A stretch of 16,283 nt of DNA from a virus. The position numbers and the translations under genes were made by a program. Shown in pieces: positions 1,099-16,283 of the stretch. Location: UHGV virus genome UHGV-0153204; one strand, written 5' to 3'. Numbering within the stretch: the first letter of the stretch is position 1; every line of letters starts with the position of its first letter. The notes below the pieces were generated by a model. The model was not told where the DNA came from, ran no database searches, and saw only the letters and a program-made list of their open reading frames with translations.

Positions 1099-1215
1099 AA
1101 GCTGTGTGGCGAAGTGAGCACACTTAACAGATTACGATATTTTTTGCGTACGCGTTAGTGTTTTGATAGAATTTTCAGCCACATAAAAATTCATTCTTAT
1201 AATTCGGGATATATA

Positions 1216-2391
1216 ATGGATATAACTTGTTTAGAATGTGGCAATGTTCTTGACGACCCAACTGTAGCTTGCGATAAATGCGGTGCCACGCCTCATGTTG
1301 TAGCGCTGGGCAAACAATCGTACTTTCCTATTGGTGCTGTAACAGCAAATCTTGAAAAAAATGATTCAAGAGCATTTGATTATCGATTAGGTGAAGTTTG
1401 GGATCTAAAAAATGAAGTCACATCTGAATTCATAACCAGAATTGAGAAAAAATTTAGCCGAAAAAACAAATTTCATAACTTCCTAGACTCAGATCACAAC
1501 CCTTCATCCATTCCTACGATCCTAAAAAAATACATTAATAAAAATAATGAATTCATTGATTTATCTAGAGCTATAATAGAGAAGCTTAAACATAATGCTA
1601 ATAACGAATCGAGAGTTGCCCAACTTCAGGGGGGGAGCGTTGTTTTCATCCACTATAAGTCTACCGAACCAGAGGATTTGGGGAAACTTCTAATCGTAAT
1701 GGTTGATAAACAAAGCGCCTATGACTTTGATTCGGATAAGTTGACCCCAACAAGATTAAATCCAATTAATACCGATGCCTTACGGCAGGCTGCGATGTTC
1801 GATTTAACTTTATTCGAAGCCAGTTATCCAGAAAACAAGGGTGACTCATATGTACATTTCTTGCAAGGTAAATCTAAAAGCGATTTTTTCAAAGACTCAT
1901 TAGGTTGCCGACATGATTCGGACAATAAAAGAAGCATTCAGCAATTATTCAGTGCTATAGATATTTTTGCTAGTAAAAACTCACTCGGTCGTGTACTGCG
2001 TGATACTATTGACAATGAAGTTAAATCCTTACTGGAAAAAAAATCAAAAGATAAACACGGAAATAAGTCCGTTAAGATAGAGGATATTTCAAAAATAATT
2101 GACTCATGCCTGACTGATTCACACAAATGTAAGGGAACGTTTGTCGATTTTGTTAATCTTAATGGTTTCCAGATTGACCCTCAATTTGAACCAACTCCTA
2201 AAGCAGCTGAAAGCGCGCTTACAATTGAAGTGGCAGATAACGACAATAATTTTAAGTTGAAAATAATGCGTGGAGCTATTGGAGACGAAAAGTCAAATAA
2301 GCCTGTAATTCTCACTGACAACAAATGCGAAATTGTGATAAAATTGAGTCAGGCAAATTATGATGAACTCAAAAGATATAGAGACAGCTAA
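1216..2391 (+). CDS. Hypothetical protein: N-terminal CxxC...CxxC zinc ribbon plus NdpA/YejK-like nucleoid-associated-protein domain (candidate cassette gene A)
   Basis: 391 aa ORF, visibly AT-rich. N-terminus CLECG...(12 aa)...CDKCG. The central region GGSVVFIHYK...YVHFLQGKSKSDFFKDSLGC resembles the GGFVLFCHY...[23 protein letters not shown] block of E. coli YejK as I recall it. Needs HMM confirmation. Confidence 0.7.
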   Translation: MDITCLECGNVLDDPTVACDKCGATPHVVALGKQSYFPIGAVTANLEKNDSRAFDYRLGEVWDLKNEVTSEFITRIEKKFSRKNKFHNFLDSDHNPSSIPTILKKYINKNNEFIDLSRAIIEKLKHNANNESRVAQLQGGSVVFIHYKSTEPEDLGKLLIVMVDKQSAYDFDSDKLTPTRLNPINTDALRQAAMFDLTLFEASYPENKGDSYVHFLQGKSKSDFFKDSLGCRHDSDNKRSIQQLFSAIDIFASKNSLGRVLRDTIDNEVKSLLEKKSKDKHGNKSVKIEDISKIIDSCLTDSHKCKGTFVDFVNLNGFQIDPQFEPTPKAAESALTIEVADNDNNFKLKIMRGAIGDEKSNKPVILTDNKCEIVIKLSQANYDELKRYRDS

Positions 2392-2393
2392 TA

Positions 2394-3608
2394 ATGACAA
2401 TTGCTGATGACTTATCAAGATTAGCGCAGATTATTAACGGAGCCTCAAGCAGAGTTGAGGGCTACTACACTGTCATAAGTCTTGAAGAAAGCATTGTTAT
2501 TGTAAATAGTTCTGAAATAATTAGACTGTTACAATCTATAGGTTATAAAAAGGCAACAACCTGCATCGAAAATAATGAAATTTGGCTAGATCGCCAAGCT
2601 TCATCTTGGGATGATGCTATAATTTATGAGAATGTTGAGTCTTTTTGGTCTAGAGTAAACACCCAAAACGCTCTTCCGAAAAATTATATCATCGGAACGC
2701 CGTTAATACTCCCTACTTCTAAGAATGAAAGCATCGAAAAAATCCATATTTTCTTTATGTGGAAAGATATCCTTTCATTAATTTCTGATCATCATAACAG
2801 TGACTGCTCTGTCTTATTTTTCACCAATGAAGACAAAAGTTATACAGTCGAACTCACGCATTTTTTACAATATAGCGAGATTAATCGCTTATCGAACTCG
2901 TCTCTTAAATATGAAATTATAAAGGAGCTTCTCGACACAATAAAAATCAATGATTTACACAAAAGCGAGCGCAAGCTCGTTATACGCTCAGCCATAAACG
3001 AAGTATTTAAAGCAAATGGTACGTTCAATTTCTTTGACTTGCTTAACTCTACTGAACTCGTCAGGAAAAAATATGATGAACTATATGAGATTTACACAAA
3101 GAGGTTTTCTGTAAATAAAATTCTTAACGAACTCGATGAGAAAAATCTTGAGTTCACGAGTAAAATTAACGAATTCATATCATCTAATCAGACAAAAGCA
3201 TTGACTATTCCCGGTGCATTAATAGCAGCTGGTGGCTTAGTGAAGGCTAATGAAACAACCGAAGCAATATTGATTATCGCAGGACTTTGGATGATAAAAA
3301 AAGTCAATTACATTTCTATTGAGATATTCAATGAAACATTCGACAACTTACGTTCTCGAGTGGAGTCCGCTTTCGATAAGTATTTAAAGTTTGAAGAAAA
3401 TAAAGAAATCAAAGATAATGCAGATAGTATTAAGAGTAGCATTACAGGTTTGATTGATAAAGCTAAAAAAAGGATGAGAACTGTTAAATATCTCGCATCA
3501 GCCATGTTTTATGGAGGCCTTATTTACGTTGGATATAAACAGTTCCCAGTCTTTTTTGAAAAATCGGCAGTAAATCTATTTTATTTTTTATGCCATACTA
3601 TAAGCTAA
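2394..3608 (+). CDS. Hypothetical protein with predicted C-terminal membrane-spanning segments (candidate cassette gene B)
   Basis: 404 aa ORF starting 2 nt after the gene A stop (likely translationally coupled). AT-rich, Lys/Asn/Ile-rich. Hydrophobic segments ALTIPGALIAAGGLV / AILIIAGLWMI and YLASAMFYGGLIYVGY near the C-terminus. No recognisable catalytic motif by eye. Confidence 0.7.
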   Translation: MTIADDLSRLAQIINGASSRVEGYYTVISLEESIVIVNSSEIIRLLQSIGYKKATTCIENNEIWLDRQASSWDDAIIYENVESFWSRVNTQNALPKNYIIGTPLILPTSKNESIEKIHIFFMWKDILSLISDHHNSDCSVLFFTNEDKSYTVELTHFLQYSEINRLSNSSLKYEIIKELLDTIKINDLHKSERKLVIRSAINEVFKANGTFNFFDLLNSTELVRKKYDELYEIYTKRFSVNKILNELDEKNLEFTSKINEFISSNQTKALTIPGALIAAGGLVKANETTEAILIIAGLWMIKKVNYISIEIFNETFDNLRSRVESAFDKYLKFEENKEIKDNADSIKSSITGLIDKAKKRMRTVKYLASAMFYGGLIYVGYKQFPVFFEKSAVNLFYFLCHTIS

Positions 3609-3959
3609 CATTGCTAAACAGCCATCAACAAACCCCATTGCAGTTTGCAGTTCCTTCCTAATTGTGCCATCAGAGCATTTTCTCTTCTTCGCAATAGTGC
3701 GTAATGAGATACCGATAACAAAGTGGGCGATGATGAGCTCATATTCCTCTGGTTTATACCTTCTCAACCGAGCCACACAACTGTCTATCATGATGCCTTC
3801 GTCATCATCACACTGAATCCGTGACTTTTTGCCATGAGGTAAAAGTCCCTTGAAACCAGCCGCTATCGGCTGCCAGTCCACTCCGCTATTGTCTGAAGCA
3901 GCCCAAGCTCCCCAACGATCCATTACTTCATACATATCACGCATCAACTTTCTCCACAA
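3588..3959 (-). CDS. Q: Late antiterminator Q (QuuD-like short Q family)
   Basis: 123 aa; motif pattern RWGAWAA...W..IAAGFKGL...KSR.QC.DD...CSDG.I.K.LQ.A.GF matches DLP12 QuuD-type Q proteins as recalled. Lies upstream (in phage orientation) of the lysis genes. True start may be the internal Met (MRDMYEVMDRWGAW). The 3' end overlaps the convergent cassette gene B by about 21 bp. Confidence 0.75.
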   Translation of the reverse strand: MWRKLMRDMYEVMDRWGAWAASDNSGVDWQPIAAGFKGLLPHGKKSRIQCDDDEGIMIDSCVARLRRYKPEEYELIIAHFVIGISLRTIAKKRKCSDGTIRKELQTAMGFVDGCLAMLAYSMA

Positions 3960-9848: not shown

Positions 9849-10535
9849 GTGAAAACACTGGCAGAACGATTAAAGATAGGTAGAGAGAAAGCTGGCATGA
9901 GCCAAGCTCAACTAGCTGAAAAAATTGGACTTTCACAACAATCTGTAGCCAAAATAGAGAATGGCGAAACTCTACAACCGCGCAAAATTAAAGAAATTGC
10001 AAAAGTTTTAGGTGTATCACAAAAGTGGTTACAACTTGGTATTGAAGACAACGCATCCATACCTGATCTTGTTGTAAAAGAAGCAGAAAGCACCGCATTA
10101 GACCCCGATATTTTCGTAAACATTCCTGTTTTAGATGTCGAGTTATCGGCAGGTAACGGATGTCTGGCTGAAATAGTTGAATCAGCTATTGACTGGTTTC
10201 CGTTAAGAAGAGCAGATTTGAGAAAATCTGGCGTATGTGCATCTAATGCCAAGATCGTAAAAATATGGGGGAACAGTTTATTACCGGTTCTCAATAATGG
10301 AGATCTTGTTGCCGTTGATATTTCTCAAACCGTTCCTATTCGTGATGGCGATCTTTATGCCGTACGAGATGGTGTATTGCTAAGGGTTAAAATACTTATC
10401 AACTTACCTGACGGTGGCTTGATTCTTAGAAGCTTCAACAAAGATGAGTACCCAGATGAAATACTTACCTTTGAAGATAGACGAGCCAGAATTCATGTTA
10501 TAGGTAGGGTATTCTGGTCATCGCGAACTTGGTAA
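9849..10535 (+). CDS. cI: CI-like prophage repressor (N-terminal XRE HTH + C-terminal S24 LexA-like peptidase domain)
   Basis: GTG start at 9849. HTH GMSQAQLAEKIGLSQQSVAKIENGE; C-terminal region with GNSLLP (Ser) and LRVKIL (Lys) typical of S24 autocleaving repressors. Confidence 0.85.
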   Translation: MKTLAERLKIGREKAGMSQAQLAEKIGLSQQSVAKIENGETLQPRKIKEIAKVLGVSQKWLQLGIEDNASIPDLVVKEAESTALDPDIFVNIPVLDVELSAGNGCLAEIVESAIDWFPLRRADLRKSGVCASNAKIVKIWGNSLLPVLNNGDLVAVDISQTVPIRDGDLYAVRDGVLLRVKILINLPDGGLILRSFNKDEYPDEILTFEDRRARIHVIGRVFWSSRTW

Positions 10536-11408
10536 TGCATCGAAAAGCATTTCTTCAGAAATAATTTTAAGTTTTGCACCATTATCATCTCTATAAGATA
10601 TAGCCTTTTCGATCTTCCTTCCGTGACTAGAGAATTTCCAATCACGGGAGGAAAGCGTCCCAATTACTAAAAAATCCAACTGTTGAGTAATTCCACTACT
10701 GATGTTCCCACCAGCATTTTTAATCAAATTTTCAACTACGGCTCTCTTTCCTGCAACAAAAGTGCCTGTAAGACAATAGGTTTTACCCTCTAACTCTATC
10801 GAAGCCTCTACATCAATAGGCAGCCTGGTCGCCAAACCATCCACCACCCCACTTTCCAAGTCACATCCTGTGAAGTCTACTAATGCCTTATGTAGAGTTA
10901 AACTCTCATCTTCAGTAATAACACCATCTTTAAGAATTTCCTTTACAAGTGCATAAAGTTTTTTTCCTGGGTAGTTGTTCTTCAAAGCTCCATTTTGCTC
11001 AAGCCACCAATTAAGATATCTTATTTCTTCTTGAGTTAAGTTCCGATCAGCAATTAATCCTTTACATAGTCCATTAAGTAAATGGACATCTACATCCTTG
11101 GAGTAAAAATCAATTTCAGGGATATCAAGAATTTCCCTCTGTATTTGGAGAAGGCTATTTTTAAGGTCATCACGTTCTTCTGATGTGATTATTCCATCCG
11201 CAAGAATATCCGACACCCGTGCAGATAGACTTTTTATAACTCCATTATTGATAATCTGCTTTGCTTCAAGTAACCATGTATCTAAGTAAAGAACCTCCTC
11301 TTCACGGACAACTCCATCTGCAATGATTCCATCAATGATGCTAATCAAGTTAGCAAATAACTTGTCCCGGTTCTGTGTGTAATTAAAAGCGTAAAGCGCG
11401 TCTTCCAT
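10518..11408 (-). CDS. Hypothetical protein: four tandem ~36-aa repeats plus C-terminal BRCT-like domain (immunity-region accessory gene)
   Basis: Likely start ATG at 11408 with perfect SD (AAAGGAGGttgtATG); the ORF track begins at 11438. Repeats share a hydrophobic-ADG-hydrophobic-(I/V)(T/R)xEE...L core (IIADGVVREEEV, ILADGIITSEER, LIADRNLTQEEI, ILKDGVITEDES). C-terminus GKTYCLTGTF...DFLVIGT...KLKIISEEMLFDAL resembles the LigA-type BRCT domain. AT-rich, convergent with cI. Confidence 0.7.
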   Translation of the reverse strand: MEDALYAFNYTQNRDKLFANLISIIDGIIADGVVREEEVLYLDTWLLEAKQIINNGVIKSLSARVSDILADGIITSEERDDLKNSLLQIQREILDIPEIDFYSKDVDVHLLNGLCKGLIADRNLTQEEIRYLNWWLEQNGALKNNYPGKKLYALVKEILKDGVITEDESLTLHKALVDFTGCDLESGVVDGLATRLPIDVEASIELEGKTYCLTGTFVAGKRAVVENLIKNAGGNISSGITQQLDFLVIGTLSSRDWKFSSHGRKIEKAISYRDDNGAKLKIISEEMLFDALPSSR

Positions 11409-11439
11409 ACAACCTCCTTTTTTTGATAATCCTTGCACT

Positions 11440-13133: not shown

Positions 13134-13394
13134 ATGAGGTTATCAAAAATGCTTCAAATGCTGACACTTGAAGAATGGGCTGCGGAAAAATTTAGGAGTA
13201 ATCCTCCAAGTGTGTCCACATTGCGTCGTTATGCTAAGCAGAATTTATTTTGTCCACCAGCAATGAAACAAGGTCGACTCTGGCGAGTACGTGAGGACGC
13301 AGAGTTAGTTGGGGAATTAGTTACTCCAGTAATCAAGAAAAGTGATTCTATTATTCTGCAAAGGATTTTAAGCAATGGCAGCCAGACCACGTAA
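13134..13394 (+). CDS. xis: Excisionase Xis
   Basis: MLTLEEWAAEKFRS...LRRYAKQNLFCPPAMKQGRLW parallels lambda Xis (MYLTLQEWNARQRR...VRRWVRECRIFPPPVKDGREY). Overlaps the int start as in lambda. True start may be 13149 or 13158 rather than 13134. Confidence 0.8.
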   Translation: MRLSKMLQMLTLEEWAAEKFRSNPPSVSTLRRYAKQNLFCPPAMKQGRLWRVREDAELVGELVTPVIKKSDSIILQRILSNGSQTT

Positions 13395-14502
13395 AAATAA
13401 TGTTTCAGTACCTAACTTGTATCCGCTTTATAGTAGAAAAGTAAATAAAGTCTATTGGCGATATAAGCATCCAGTGACCGGGAAATTTCATTCGTTGGGC
13501 ACAAATGAAGCTGAAGCTATTGCTATTGCCACTGAAGCTAACACTCGTCTGGCTGAGCAAAGAACCCGGCAGATTCTAGCTATCAGTGATAGGATCGCAA
13601 CCAGCAAAGGAAAAGCGATCACAACGTCAACCTGGTTAGATCGTTATCAAGCGATCCAGGATGACAGGCTCAAAAGTGGTGATATAAGACTCAACACCTA
13701 TAAGCAAAAAGCTAAACCAGTATCCTTGCTCAGAGAACGAGCAGGAATGAAGTTGATCTCATCCGTTGATGTTAGAGATATAGCACAATTGCTTGATGAG
13801 TATATTGCAGCTGGACAGCCTAGAATGGCCCAAGTCGTTAGGTCTGTATTGATCGATGTGTTTAAGGAAGCACAGCATTATGGCGAAGTTCCGCCAGGGT
13901 ATAACCCTGCTCTTGCGACGAAGCAACCCAAAAGAAAAATTACCCGTCAACGCCTCAGCCTGGAAGAATGGCAAAAAATATTCGATATAGCAGACGCCAA
14001 TCATCGTTACATGGGAAATGCCATGCTCCTAGCTTTGGTCACTGGGCAGCGTTTGGGAGATATATCCAAAATGAAATTTAGTGATATTTGGGAAGATCAT
14101 CTTCACGTCATTCAGGAAAAGACTGGAAGCAAAATCGCTATCCCTCTTTCTCTTCGCCTCAATGCGATTAACTGGAGTTTACGCGATGTTGTAGCGCGCT
14201 GCCGAGACTATGCGGTTAGCCCATATTTAGTGCATTTTTTCCGTGCAACATCACAGGCAGAACGTGGCGCACAAGTTAAATCCAATACATTGACGATGAA
14301 TTTTAGTAAAGCGAGAGATTTAGCAGGAATTGACTGGGGAGAAGGTTCACCTGCCACATTCCATGAACAAAGGTCTTTATCTGAACGTCTGTACAAAGAA
14401 CAGGGGTTAGATACACAAAAACTACTTGGCCATAAAACACAGCGACAGACAGATCGATACAATGACGACCGAGGCAAAGGATGGAACAAGATAGCGTTGT
14501 AA
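13375..14502 (+). CDS. int: Tyrosine recombinase, lambda-family integrase
   Basis: 375 aa, colinear with lambda Int by eye (PNLY, HSWLDRY, VVTGQRVGD-like LVTGQRLGD, catalytic C-terminal HKTQRQTDRYNDDRGKGWNKIAL versus lambda HKSDTMASQYRDDRGREWDKIEI, including the tyrosine). Confidence 0.93.
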   Translation: MAARPRKNNVSVPNLYPLYSRKVNKVYWRYKHPVTGKFHSLGTNEAEAIAIATEANTRLAEQRTRQILAISDRIATSKGKAITTSTWLDRYQAIQDDRLKSGDIRLNTYKQKAKPVSLLRERAGMKLISSVDVRDIAQLLDEYIAAGQPRMAQVVRSVLIDVFKEAQHYGEVPPGYNPALATKQPKRKITRQRLSLEEWQKIFDIADANHRYMGNAMLLALVTGQRLGDISKMKFSDIWEDHLHVIQEKTGSKIAIPLSLRLNAINWSLRDVVARCRDYAVSPYLVHFFRATSQAERGAQVKSNTLTMNFSKARDLAGIDWGEGSPATFHEQRSLSERLYKEQGLDTQKLLGHKTQRQTDRYNDDRGKGWNKIAL

Positions 14503-14843: not shown

Positions 14844-15434
14844 TTACTCACCATCATCTAATTCGTTTAAAAATCTGGCAAGAACATCTCCGTGGCACGG
14901 ATAGGGTTTGCAATGGCAACCAAGGATTTTTCCTTTATGTGCTTTCAGCTTTTCTTTGAAATCCTCTCCCCCTTTTAAAAAATTTCTATCAAAGTCATAC
15001 TTAAACTTTCTTATAACTTCATCACGATCACCATCTGCTCCAATCGCATAAGGATTACCCCATAAAGTACCGCGACCGCAATATACATCGAAGTGTTCCC
15101 CCCTGTCTTTATTGGATACAAAAGTAATTTTGTCTTTTATATACCTTACGGGAATTTGTGATGCTAACGTTTCATAAATTGTTGTGAACTCAGGTTTCAA
15201 AGCTGAATCAAAAACAACGGCATGCGTTAAACCAAGATTATAAGGATCTGTAAGAAGGTCAGGATCAAGTTTAAAAATCAAATCAGAAGAAAAATAGTCA
15301 TGTATCAAGTTCTGGTTATCTTCAAAATAAAATACTTTGTATTCACTCGATTCGGAGAAGATACGGGTAAGCTTTCGCTCAAACTTACCCTTTGAAGCAA
15401 AATCAGGATGATACATAACTAGTACTTTCATCAT
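14844..15434 (-). CDS. DUF4326-like domain protein with N-terminal extension
   Basis: C-terminal FDVYCGRGTLWGNPYAIG...GKILGCHCKPYPCHGDVLARFL matches the DUF4326 signature as I recall it (..CGRP..WGNPF...L.C.C.P.pCHGDVL). AT-rich. ATGA-type overlap with the upstream DUF488-like gene. Confidence 0.55.
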   Translation of the reverse strand: MMKVLVMYHPDFASKGKFERKLTRIFSESSEYKVFYFEDNQNLIHDYFSSDLIFKLDPDLLTDPYNLGLTHAVVFDSALKPEFTTIYETLASQIPVRYIKDKITFVSNKDRGEHFDVYCGRGTLWGNPYAIGADGDRDEVIRKFKYDFDRNFLKGGEDFKEKLKAHKGKILGCHCKPYPCHGDVLARFLNELDDGE

Positions 15435-15871
15435 ATTAAATGCTTAACCTCAAAATCTGCATCCCAGTGCTTGTTCAGATATTCTATCACAAGACGACGA
15501 TGACAGTGATGGGGTTTGTGCTCACTACATAACAAGCAACCGTCAGAGATTAAGCTCTTATCAATACGTTCAATATTCCTTTTTTCCATAAGATTCAGAA
15601 AGTTATCTTCGTAAACTTCCCACGAAACATTACCTTTTTTATAAGGGTCGAGTATCTCTTTAGTTGGGGCGAGCTCTGGAACATGGGCGTAATCTACCCC
15701 GCACAACTCACGAAGGAAAAATTCGAGGTCCTTCTTTTTAGCAAAACCAGCAAGTTGCGACACGTTATTTAGCCGGACATCAACTAGGGTTTTGATTGGC
15801 TGCGACTTAATCAAGGTAAAAAATTTTTCAGCAGTTTTTTCAGTAAAGCCAATTGAGTATATCTTCAACAT
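15431..15871 (-). CDS. DUF488-like domain protein
   Basis: 146 aa; MLKIYSIGFTEKTAEKFFTLIK...LVDVRLNNVSQLAGFAKK...LLCSEHKPHHCHRRLVIEYL fits the DUF488 family pattern as recalled. Same operon as the DUF4326-like gene. Confidence 0.55.
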   Translation of the reverse strand: MLKIYSIGFTEKTAEKFFTLIKSQPIKTLVDVRLNNVSQLAGFAKKKDLEFFLRELCGVDYAHVPELAPTKEILDPYKKGNVSWEVYEDNFLNLMEKRNIERIDKSLISDGCLLCSEHKPHHCHRRLVIEYLNKHWDADFEVKHLI

Positions 15872-16240
15872 AGTATGTCTGCTATAAGTTTATAATGGAA
15901 ACCACCAAAAGTATCTAAAGCAAGACTAATGGTGATATAAGCATTCTCATGAATATGTGTACCTAATGGTTTGTTTTCATAATAATCTAACCAATAAATA
16001 TCTGTGATTTTTAAATTGTAAGTAGTGCCGTTATATACAAACTCGCCTCTTAGCTTTAATTTATCGCCCCATTTAGATGCATAGATTGTTAGTTCTCCAA
16101 CATAAATAAAATATAAACTTTCATCAATTTCTTGGGCTTCTTGAGGAGTTACTTGATCGTTGATCCCACCACCAGACTCATTATTATTATCCCACAATGA
16201 ATCTGGGGTGTCGCATAATAAAGATAATGCGGCGTCTGTA
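15865..16240 (-). CDS. Hypothetical protein, 5'-truncated (N-terminus lost at contig end; apparent start is adapter-derived)
   Basis: The ORF as called begins MCIRDS..., encoded by the Nextera mosaic-end sequence at 16241..16259, so the real gene is incomplete at its 5' end. Remaining sequence is AT-rich with no recognisable domain. Confidence 0.4.
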
Positions 16241-16283
16241 CTGTCTCTTATACACATCTGACGCTGCCGACGACTTAATAGGT
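16241..16283. other. Illumina Nextera transposase adapter read-through (non-biological)
   Basis: 16241..16273 is CTGTCTCTTATACACATCTGACGCTGCCGACGA, i.e. the Tn5 mosaic end CTGTCTCTTATACACATCT plus Nextera adapter tail. The following CTTAATAG + GT is consistent with an 8-nt index and the start of the flow-cell primer segment. Confidence 0.93.

Follow-up and report, generated by a model that had tools for sequence, protein, structure and literature searches.

The window analysed here is the whole 16,283-nucleotide (nt) stretch of UHGV virus genome UHGV-0153204, and the subject of this study is a pair of adjacent genes, A and B, located between the phage antiterminator gene Q and the holin gene. 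The pair is almost certainly the two-gene anti-phage system DS-1, as judged from the agreement of both predicted proteins with the curated protein models and the cloned sequences of that system. The two genes are the following:

1216-2391, + strand: gene A (DS-1A), 391 amino acids (aa), YejK/NA37-type nucleoid-associated protein, presumed sensor (NF053868.1, Pfam NA37)
2394-3608, + strand: gene B (DS-1B), 404 aa, presumed membrane effector (NF053869.1, phrog_5023, AlphaFold2 (AF2) model with a predicted local distance difference test score (pLDDT) of 85.4)

Identity of the gene pair with DS-1

Gene A scored 452.1 bits against the NCBIfam equivalog model NF053868.1 (DS1_1_antiphage; cut-off 330, E = 1.3e-135, model positions 3-369 of 369), which is described as a "nucleoid-associated anti-phage protein", and gene B scored 375.3 bits against NF053869.1 (DS1_2_antiphage; cut-off 315, E = 2.7e-112, model positions 1-337 of 337). 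Gene B also matched phrog_5023 (E = 5e-158).

DS-1 was named in the DefensePredictor study (DeWeirdt, Mahoney & Laub; bioRxiv 10.1101/2025.01.08.631726; Science 2026, PMC13092281), in which predicted transcription units, each preceded by its presumed native promoter region, were assayed on a low-copy plasmid in E. coli MG1655 against 24 phages, and the 42 units that were validated received DS-n names. DS-1, with the working ID D390, spans 2393 bp and encodes WP_000355468.1 (391 aa) and WP_000150292.1 (404 aa, unannotated) (PMC13092281); the pair in the window agrees with it in gene content and gene order, in the 2-nt spacing and in the total length of 2393 bp. Compared with the cloned proteins, whose sequences are printed in Table S8 of that paper, gene A carries only the substitution V30A (390/391 residues identical) and gene B only A131S (403/404 identical). 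V30A falls in the linker that follows the zinc ribbon and is modelled with low confidence, and S131 is the family consensus and adjoins the near-invariant residues D132-H133. Neither substitution looks disabling from its position in the protein, and the exact allele pair differs from the one that was tested. As RefSeq entries the proteins are common to many E. coli prophages, gene A being WP_000355468.1 apart from V30A and gene B being WP_000150293.1.

In the portion of Table S7 covered here (PMC13092281), the values of -log(EOP), where EOP is the efficiency of plating, for D390 were 7.6 for Bas1, 2.7 for Bas26, 1.7 for Bas3, 1.7 for T3, 1.0 for T5 and 0.9 for T7; the value for SECphi27 was about 0, with merely smaller plaques. 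Bas01 is a T1-like member of the Drexlerviridae and Bas26 a T5-like member of the Markadamsvirinae (PMC8594841). DS-1 is marked as replicated in Table S8, and the main text of the paper states about it only that the YejK nucleoid-associated domain was newly validated in defence (PMC13092281). Protection has accordingly been shown by others for a pair that differs by one residue per protein and was cloned with its native promoter region, and by analogy the cassette in the window would be expected to protect as well.

The first-pass annotation of this DNA had proposed an anti-phage or abortive-infection module, and the pair does lie one residue per protein from a validated system; the accompanying statement that it was not a named defence system has to be withdrawn in favour of DS-1 (NF053868, NF053869; PMC13092281). 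The PADLOC search that the annotation had suggested gave no family for gene A or gene B at E<=1 in PADLOC-DB v2.0.0 (2023). That release predates DS-1, which is why the pair looked unnamed, and the null match is therefore no evidence against a role in defence. The system is already published, validated and curated, and its identification here is a correct call, not a discovery.

Location and boundaries of the DS-1 module

The carrier is an e14-like, icd-integrating lambdoid prophage, in which the gene pair is antisense to the late genes. The features of the module and its surroundings are as follows:

598-924, - strand: lambda-family holin, first late lysis gene, left landmark of the slot (RefSeq, avian pathogenic E. 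coli (APEC) O2-211 locus)
1163-1203, + strand: candidate sigma-70 promoter(s) for gene A (consensus scan and direct reading; pattern match only)
1165-3621, + strand: DS-1 cargo module with promoter region and genes A and B, an AT-rich insert amid conserved backbone (sibling-prophage alignment)
3588-3944, - strand: antiterminator Q (Pfam PF06530 Phage_antitermQ, E = 2.7e-47; RefSeq ATG start)

The stop codon of gene A (TAA, 2389-2391) is separated by 2 nt from the start codon of gene B (ATG, 2394), and the open reading frame (ORF) calls thus confirmed the tightly coupled pair, opposite in strand to the late genes, that had been described before. The GC content was 0.348 for positions 1216-3608 and 0.468 for the remaining window (0.45-0.59 in flanking 300-nt windows), in line with the earlier impression that the pair is far more AT-rich than the backbone. 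The holin at 598-924 was likewise annotated in RefSeq as "phage holin, lambda family", and the APEC O2-211 locus differs from the window by a single base within 1101-3608. The identity of Q also held, and only its start had to be moved: it had been placed at 3588-3959, at an upstream TTG, and the RefSeq ATG start gives 3588-3944. The extent of the feature itself, first set at 1101-3608, was revised as well. When aligned with sibling prophages that carry other cargos, the left-hand backbone homology ended at about 1164 and the right-hand homology at about 3622, which places the cargo at about 1165 to about 3621.

Upstream of gene A, pattern matching revealed the hexamers TTGATA-16-AAAAAT at 1163-1190, a perfect TATAAT at 1198-1203 and a GGGA Shine-Dalgarno-like motif at 1206-1209. 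At the other end, gene B and Q are convergent and their 3' ends overlap by 21 nt.

Gene A belongs to the YejK family

1228-1281, + strand: zinc ribbon of gene A, residues 5-22 (CLEC-x10-CDKC; Cys 5, 8, 19 and 22)
1405-2343, + strand: NA37/YejK domain of gene A, residues 64-376 (Pfam envelope; AF2 pLDDT mostly 80-95)

Residues 64-376 of gene A matched Pfam NA37 (E = 1.2e-23), a profile built from 31 homologues matched the E. coli YejK structure 9be2 at E = 1.4e-20, and the AF2 model (pLDDT 83.9) matched the same structure in Foldseek (E = 7e-14, prob 1.0). The family assignment to NdpA/YejK made in the first-pass annotation was thereby borne out by the hidden Markov model, and the structural-neighbour search it had suggested recovered an NdpA-like fold; the domain is longer than had been thought, covering residues 64-376 and not about 140-240. 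E. coli YejK (NdpA, 9be2) shares with gene A both the NA37 fold and the family. YejK is a housekeeping nucleoid protein, whereas gene A, which is only about 19% identical to it, carries a zinc ribbon in addition at the N-terminus, has a high AT content, is mobile and is invariably accompanied by gene B. Housekeeping YejK itself (NF001557 / PRK00378) was rejected as the identity of gene A, which scored 81.4 bits against a cut-off of 341; gene A is therefore a YejK-family paralogue and not YejK.

The zinc ribbon gave sub-threshold Pfam scores (E = 0.07) and low pLDDT. Its four cysteines (C5/C8/C19/C22) are present as first noted, with the two CxxC pairs separated by 10 and not 12 residues. In the DefensePredictor paper, HHpred placed YejK/NA37 at residues 42-382 of WP_000355468.1 and a NinF-like zinc ribbon at residues 3-26 with 86% probability (Table S5, PMC13092281). 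The ribbon is found in enterobacterial members of the family and a few others; it is absent in Pseudomonas and more distant homologues, which have an acidic tail in its place, and it is therefore no defining feature of the gene A family.

Gene B has an acidic N-terminal domain and hydrophobic helices

2394-3038, + strand: N-terminal alpha/beta domain of gene B, residues 1-215, acidic, candidate partner-binding ("DNA-mimic") domain (charge, AF2 model)
3051-3329, + strand: residues 220-312, long helix followed by a hydrophobic helical hairpin (conserved columns, AF2 helices)
3474-3605, + strand: C-terminal hydrophobic helices, residues 361-404 (transmembrane (TM)-like windows, AF2 helices)

The AF2 model of gene B, a confident one, consists of an alpha/beta domain to about residue 215 followed by very long helices at 220-268, 271-284, 288-333, 337-383 and 385-403. 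Residues 1-215 have a net charge of -8 and an isoelectric point of 5.2, and this domain is net negative in 28/28 aligned homologues. The best conserved block of the protein consists of invariant or near-invariant columns at 226-284 (KYDELYE..YTKRFSVNK..TIPGALIA.G). On the Wimley-White octanol scale, a 19-residue scan picked out 291-312, 366-389 and 381-404 as TM-like windows. All 28 members of the family alignment have such a window at about 365-400, and most have one at about 290-315. As controls, gene A and lysozyme gave no window and the holin was positive. Hydrophobic, probably membrane-spanning segments had already been pointed out near the C-terminus, and the conservation of these windows in the family agrees with this.

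Pfam returned only noise for gene B (SWIB, CdvA and UPF0184, E>0.09), a gene B profile matched nothing among PDB sequences at E<=1, and fold searches gave nothing significant, with CorA-type channels and ClyA-family alpha-pore-forming toxins (ClyA, AhlB, SmhB, MakA) recurring at non-significant scores.

Distribution and linkage of the two genes

The cassette was present at >=99% identity in 106 of 5426 complete E. coli genomes, and the Q-side annotation was the same in all 15 listed E. coli records. The region 925-1215 is present in 387 E. coli genomes. No DNA or protein match to it was found in 50,697 deposited phage genome records, the cassette being seen in prophages only. Homologues extend across the Gammaproteobacteria (110 clusters for gene A and 69 for gene B), and a HMMER profile search with gene B collected 794 clusters at 50% identity with E<=1e-3.

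To describe synteny, 19 loci from Enterobacterales, Pseudomonas, Colwellia, Thalassotalea and Pseudoteredinibacter were examined. Gene A was directly upstream of gene B on the same strand in 19/19 of them, one (Photorhabdus) being degraded, with gaps or overlaps of at most 18 nt, and the order A then B was also seen at two very distant gene B homologues. This strict synteny supports a functional coupling of the two predicted proteins.

The neighbours of homologous pairs included AbiEii with an AAA_21 ATPase (locus L008), BstA (L009) and a Schlafen-AlbA_2 / SLFN_AlbA_2 protein (L031), a defence neighbourhood that speaks for the proposed function. In three Pseudomonas aeruginosa loci (L005-L007) the pair lies beside a Pf-type filamentous prophage (Zot, DUF2523), and a distant pair (L030) is surrounded by prophage genes, with a GpJ-like tail-tip gene immediately downstream. 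Given these Pf-type and tail-gene contexts, the pair rides on differing mobile elements.

Some copies were interrupted. The cassette is split by the IS5-like insertion sequence (IS) ISKpn26 in NZ_CP182203.1 (H12) and by IS1 in NZ_OZ547033.1 (H13), and the copy in Photorhabdus viridis (L024) is broken into fragments. These split and fragmented copies look like occasional inactivation of the system.

Comparison with PANGU systems and a proposed mechanism

In the PANGU systems a YejK-like nucleoid protein is the infection sensor (Li et al., bioRxiv 10.64898/2026.04.06.716658). In type II PANGU the nucleoid protein Pag2A is joined by Pag2B, a transmembrane effector with an acidic "DNA-mimicking" domain at its N-terminus and a TM region at its C-terminus. 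In the E. coli representative, PANGU-Ecu, defence depends on both genes and neither one is toxic by itself, the growth curves point to abortive infection, a fusion of Pag2A to green fluorescent protein (Pag2A-GFP) leaves the nucleoid for the cytoplasm upon T4 infection, and Pag2A binds the acidic domain with a dissociation constant (KD) of 19 nM; the system protects against T4 or Bas34 and not against T1 or T5 (10.64898/2026.04.06.716658).

The DS-1 pair has the same architecture as type II PANGU, a bicistronic operon with the YejK-like gene first and an effector with an acidic N-terminus and a TM C-terminus second. In the window, the NA37 protein is encoded first, and gene B combines an acidic N-domain with a C-terminal TM-like region, as seen from charge and hydrophobicity only. 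Type II PANGU also has an E. coli representative, and mobile elements and defence islands carry its operon as they do the DS-1 pair. From this analogy, the DS-1 pair probably belongs to type II PANGU. Type I PANGU (Pag1A with the GRel toxSAS Pag1B) shares with the DS-1 model a YejK-like sensor and an acidic domain in the partner, but its effector is a cytoplasmic alarmone synthetase, whereas gene B has neither toxSYNTH nor any other Pfam domain. There is no cross-reference between the DefensePredictor paper and the PANGU preprint, and the preprint does not cite DefensePredictor.

Given its type II PANGU architecture, the same working model was adopted for the DS-1 pair. In the uninfected cell, gene A protein would be bound to the host chromosome and thereby kept apart from gene B protein, which would be anchored in or at the inner membrane by the hydrophobic hairpin (about 270-312) and the C-terminal helices (about 361-404). 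An infecting phage that destroys or remodels the nucleoid would free gene A protein, which could then engage the acidic N-terminal domain of gene B protein; this would switch on a membrane-damaging activity and stop infected cell and phage together (abortive infection). T1-, T5- and T7-type phages degrade host DNA, which would fit the phages restricted by DS-1. For DS-1 we infer the nucleoid-release trigger, the direct binding of A to B, the disruption of the membrane and the abortive outcome all by analogy with PANGU, and we consider the chances of this relocation-and-activation mechanism for the present system to be even. Taken as a whole, the identity with DS-1 together with a PANGU-like mechanism is the best explanation and a somewhat probable one.

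Several observations weigh against it. The phage spectra differ, DS-1 acting best against T1-like Bas01 and modestly against T5, whereas PANGU-Ecu acts against T4 and not T1/T5, and the portion of Table S7 covered here has no T4 row for D390 (PMC13092281). The equivalence of DS-1 and type II PANGU would be one of architecture only. The hydrophobic segments of gene B are borderline on the Kyte-Doolittle scale (maximum 1.56) and the hairpin helices are short. The DefensePredictor paper reports no DS-1 mutants, mechanism, toxicity tests, localisation or escape mutants (PMC13092281), and the preprint leaves open how Pag2A activates Pag2B (10.64898/2026.04.06.716658). The spectra may differ because one and the same system was expressed differently, or because the alleles are not the same. 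DS-1A also has the zinc ribbon, a feature nowhere mentioned in the text of the type II PANGU preprint (10.64898/2026.04.06.716658); this largely enterobacterial ribbon might give DS-1A a trigger unlike that of PANGU, which could explain the difference in spectrum.

Alternative explanations

It is also conceivable, but unlikely, that gene A protein senses incoming or replicating unmodified phage DNA directly, by means of the YejK domain and perhaps also of the zinc ribbon, and that gene B protein is recruited or activated at the membrane, where it would kill the cell or block DNA entry. T1-like, T5-like and T3/T7 phages have largely unmodified DNA, as has lambda, and T-even phages have glucosyl-hydroxymethylcytosine DNA. 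Among the D390 rows covered, the restricted phages are T1-like, T5-like and T3/T7, and T-even phages are absent, as direct sensing would have it; lambda, however, is absent from these rows too. The 7.6-log effect on Bas1, with no plaques, resembles early interference more than leaky abortive infection, and the zinc ribbon, as a lineage-specific add-on, could add nucleic-acid contacts. However, YejK-type proteins bind DNA with no known sequence or modification specificity. According to the part of the PANGU preprint covered, Pag1A binds long DNA generically, and Pag2A was seen on the host nucleoid before infection (10.64898/2026.04.06.716658). Nor is there a common receptor or injection logic among the phages concerned, which are LptD-, FhuA/BtuB- and lipopolysaccharide (LPS)-dependent. 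Receptor-level superinfection exclusion was set aside on similar grounds, the restricted phages being unrelated and using different receptors.

A toxin-antitoxin arrangement, in which gene A protein would neutralise a membrane toxin encoded by gene B until phage-induced host shut-off or proteolysis depletes it, would account for the tightly coupled two-gene operon with a putative membrane-active second gene, for its carriage on mobile elements and for the IS-disrupted E. coli copies (H12, H13), which would be expected for a costly locus. We regard it as improbable, as a 44-kDa DNA-binding protein would be an unusual antitoxin and the type II PANGU genes are non-toxic singly and both needed, the nucleoid protein being the activator and not an antitoxin (10.64898/2026.04.06.716658). 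A function outside defence is very improbable. The pair could form a membrane-tethered nucleoid protein that organises or silences prophage DNA, or antisense transcription into Q could stabilise lysogeny; in favour of such a function are the housekeeping role of YejK and the convergence on Q of gene B, after which no + strand terminator was detected. Yet MG1655 is protected against several unrelated phages by the pair when it is cloned without the prophage (PMC13092281), homologous pairs occur outside prophages in defence islands, and unrelated cargos, some of them PADLOC candidate defence systems, are found in the same slot (see below). The published plaque assays have already largely refuted this explanation.

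A variable cargo site between Q and a conserved element

What is new in this analysis is the cargo slot with its alternative occupants; about DS-1 itself nothing new was established. The module lies between Q and a conserved element:

1076-1164, - strand: conserved 89-bp Q-associated element with an intrinsic-terminator hairpin (1098-1077), kept beside every cargo type

In sibling E. coli prophages the slot between Q and this element holds at least five other antisense cargos, and in one it is empty:

L002, 4293-5293: 87 and 242 aa proteins, no matches
L003, 4401-6128 (same type in L026): TIGR04255-family protein, 114 and 204 aa proteins; the first protein matched TIGR04255 (uninformative), the second and third nothing
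L025, 3788-5399: 342 and 191 aa proteins, PADLOC PDC-M53A (E = 1e-31) and PDC-M53B (E = 2e-54)
L027, 3767-4513: 248 aa protein, PDC-M68A and HNH-type endonuclease effector models
L028, 3819-5977: 365, 140 and 211 aa proteins; the 211-aa protein matched PDC-S54 weakly (E = 7e-6), the 365- and 140-aa proteins nothing
L029: empty slot, with the element (L029 3501-3585) beginning 14 bp past the Q stop codon

The moron hotspot that the first-pass annotation had placed in the gap between Q and the lysis genes is thus indeed a site of variable cargo. All six cargo types, DS-1 included, are antisense to the late genes. The last ~11 codons of Q differ with each cargo type, and the homology of Q between types ends at about 3622; each insertion therefore rewrites the C-terminus of Q. 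The cargo appears to insert between Q and the element and to replace the last ~11 Q codons, and the 89-bp element is probably a Q-responsive late leader of the pR'/tR' type. A consensus scan found no minus-strand promoter in 1100-1215, and Rfam found no family over the whole window, so that the element corresponds to no known RNA.

The E. coli FORC_043 locus (L004, 2551-6869) carries precisely the DS-1 protein pair, together with Q and the element, next to a different late region of Stx-phage-like type (tRNA-Ile/Arg/Arg, SASA esterase). From this combination, Q, cargo and element move as a unit by recombination.

We tentatively suggest, at slightly less than even chances, that in this group of e14-like and lambdoid prophages the slot serves as a hotspot dedicated to defence, which accepts antisense cargo only and whose three unannotated occupants would be new defence systems. 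As a speculation, the uniform antisense orientation may allow Q read-through during induction to silence the cargo. Nothing specific on this Q-proximal hotspot was found in the literature, which is no proof that none exists.

Other features of the prophage

Beyond the integrase (13375-14502), three overlapping co-directional ORFs on the - strand occupy the region 14844-16283:

14844-15434, - strand: mSLOG and DUF4326
15431-15871, - strand: DUF488 / DUF488-N3a
15865-16257, - strand: DuOB dual-OB domain protein

The trio resembles a conflict-system cargo centred on nucleotides, placed at the integrase end of the prophage. At the same position, before icd, a sibling prophage (L012) has DUF262 and a hypothetical protein. 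The immunity region contains a further gene:

10518-11438, - strand: BRCT-domain protein, 306 aa (PF00533, E = 1.4e-6)

The gene runs towards the ORF of a cI-like XRE repressor (9849-10535, + strand) and overlaps its end; in prophage immunity regions a BRCT domain is unusual.

Significance

A reading of the letters alone picked out a defence system that was described just in 2025-2026, which gives the result a value for calibration. DS-1 and type II PANGU probably represent one kind of system, for which different phage spectra have been reported. The Q-proximal slot provides a short list of uncharacterised antisense cargos that are candidate new defence systems.

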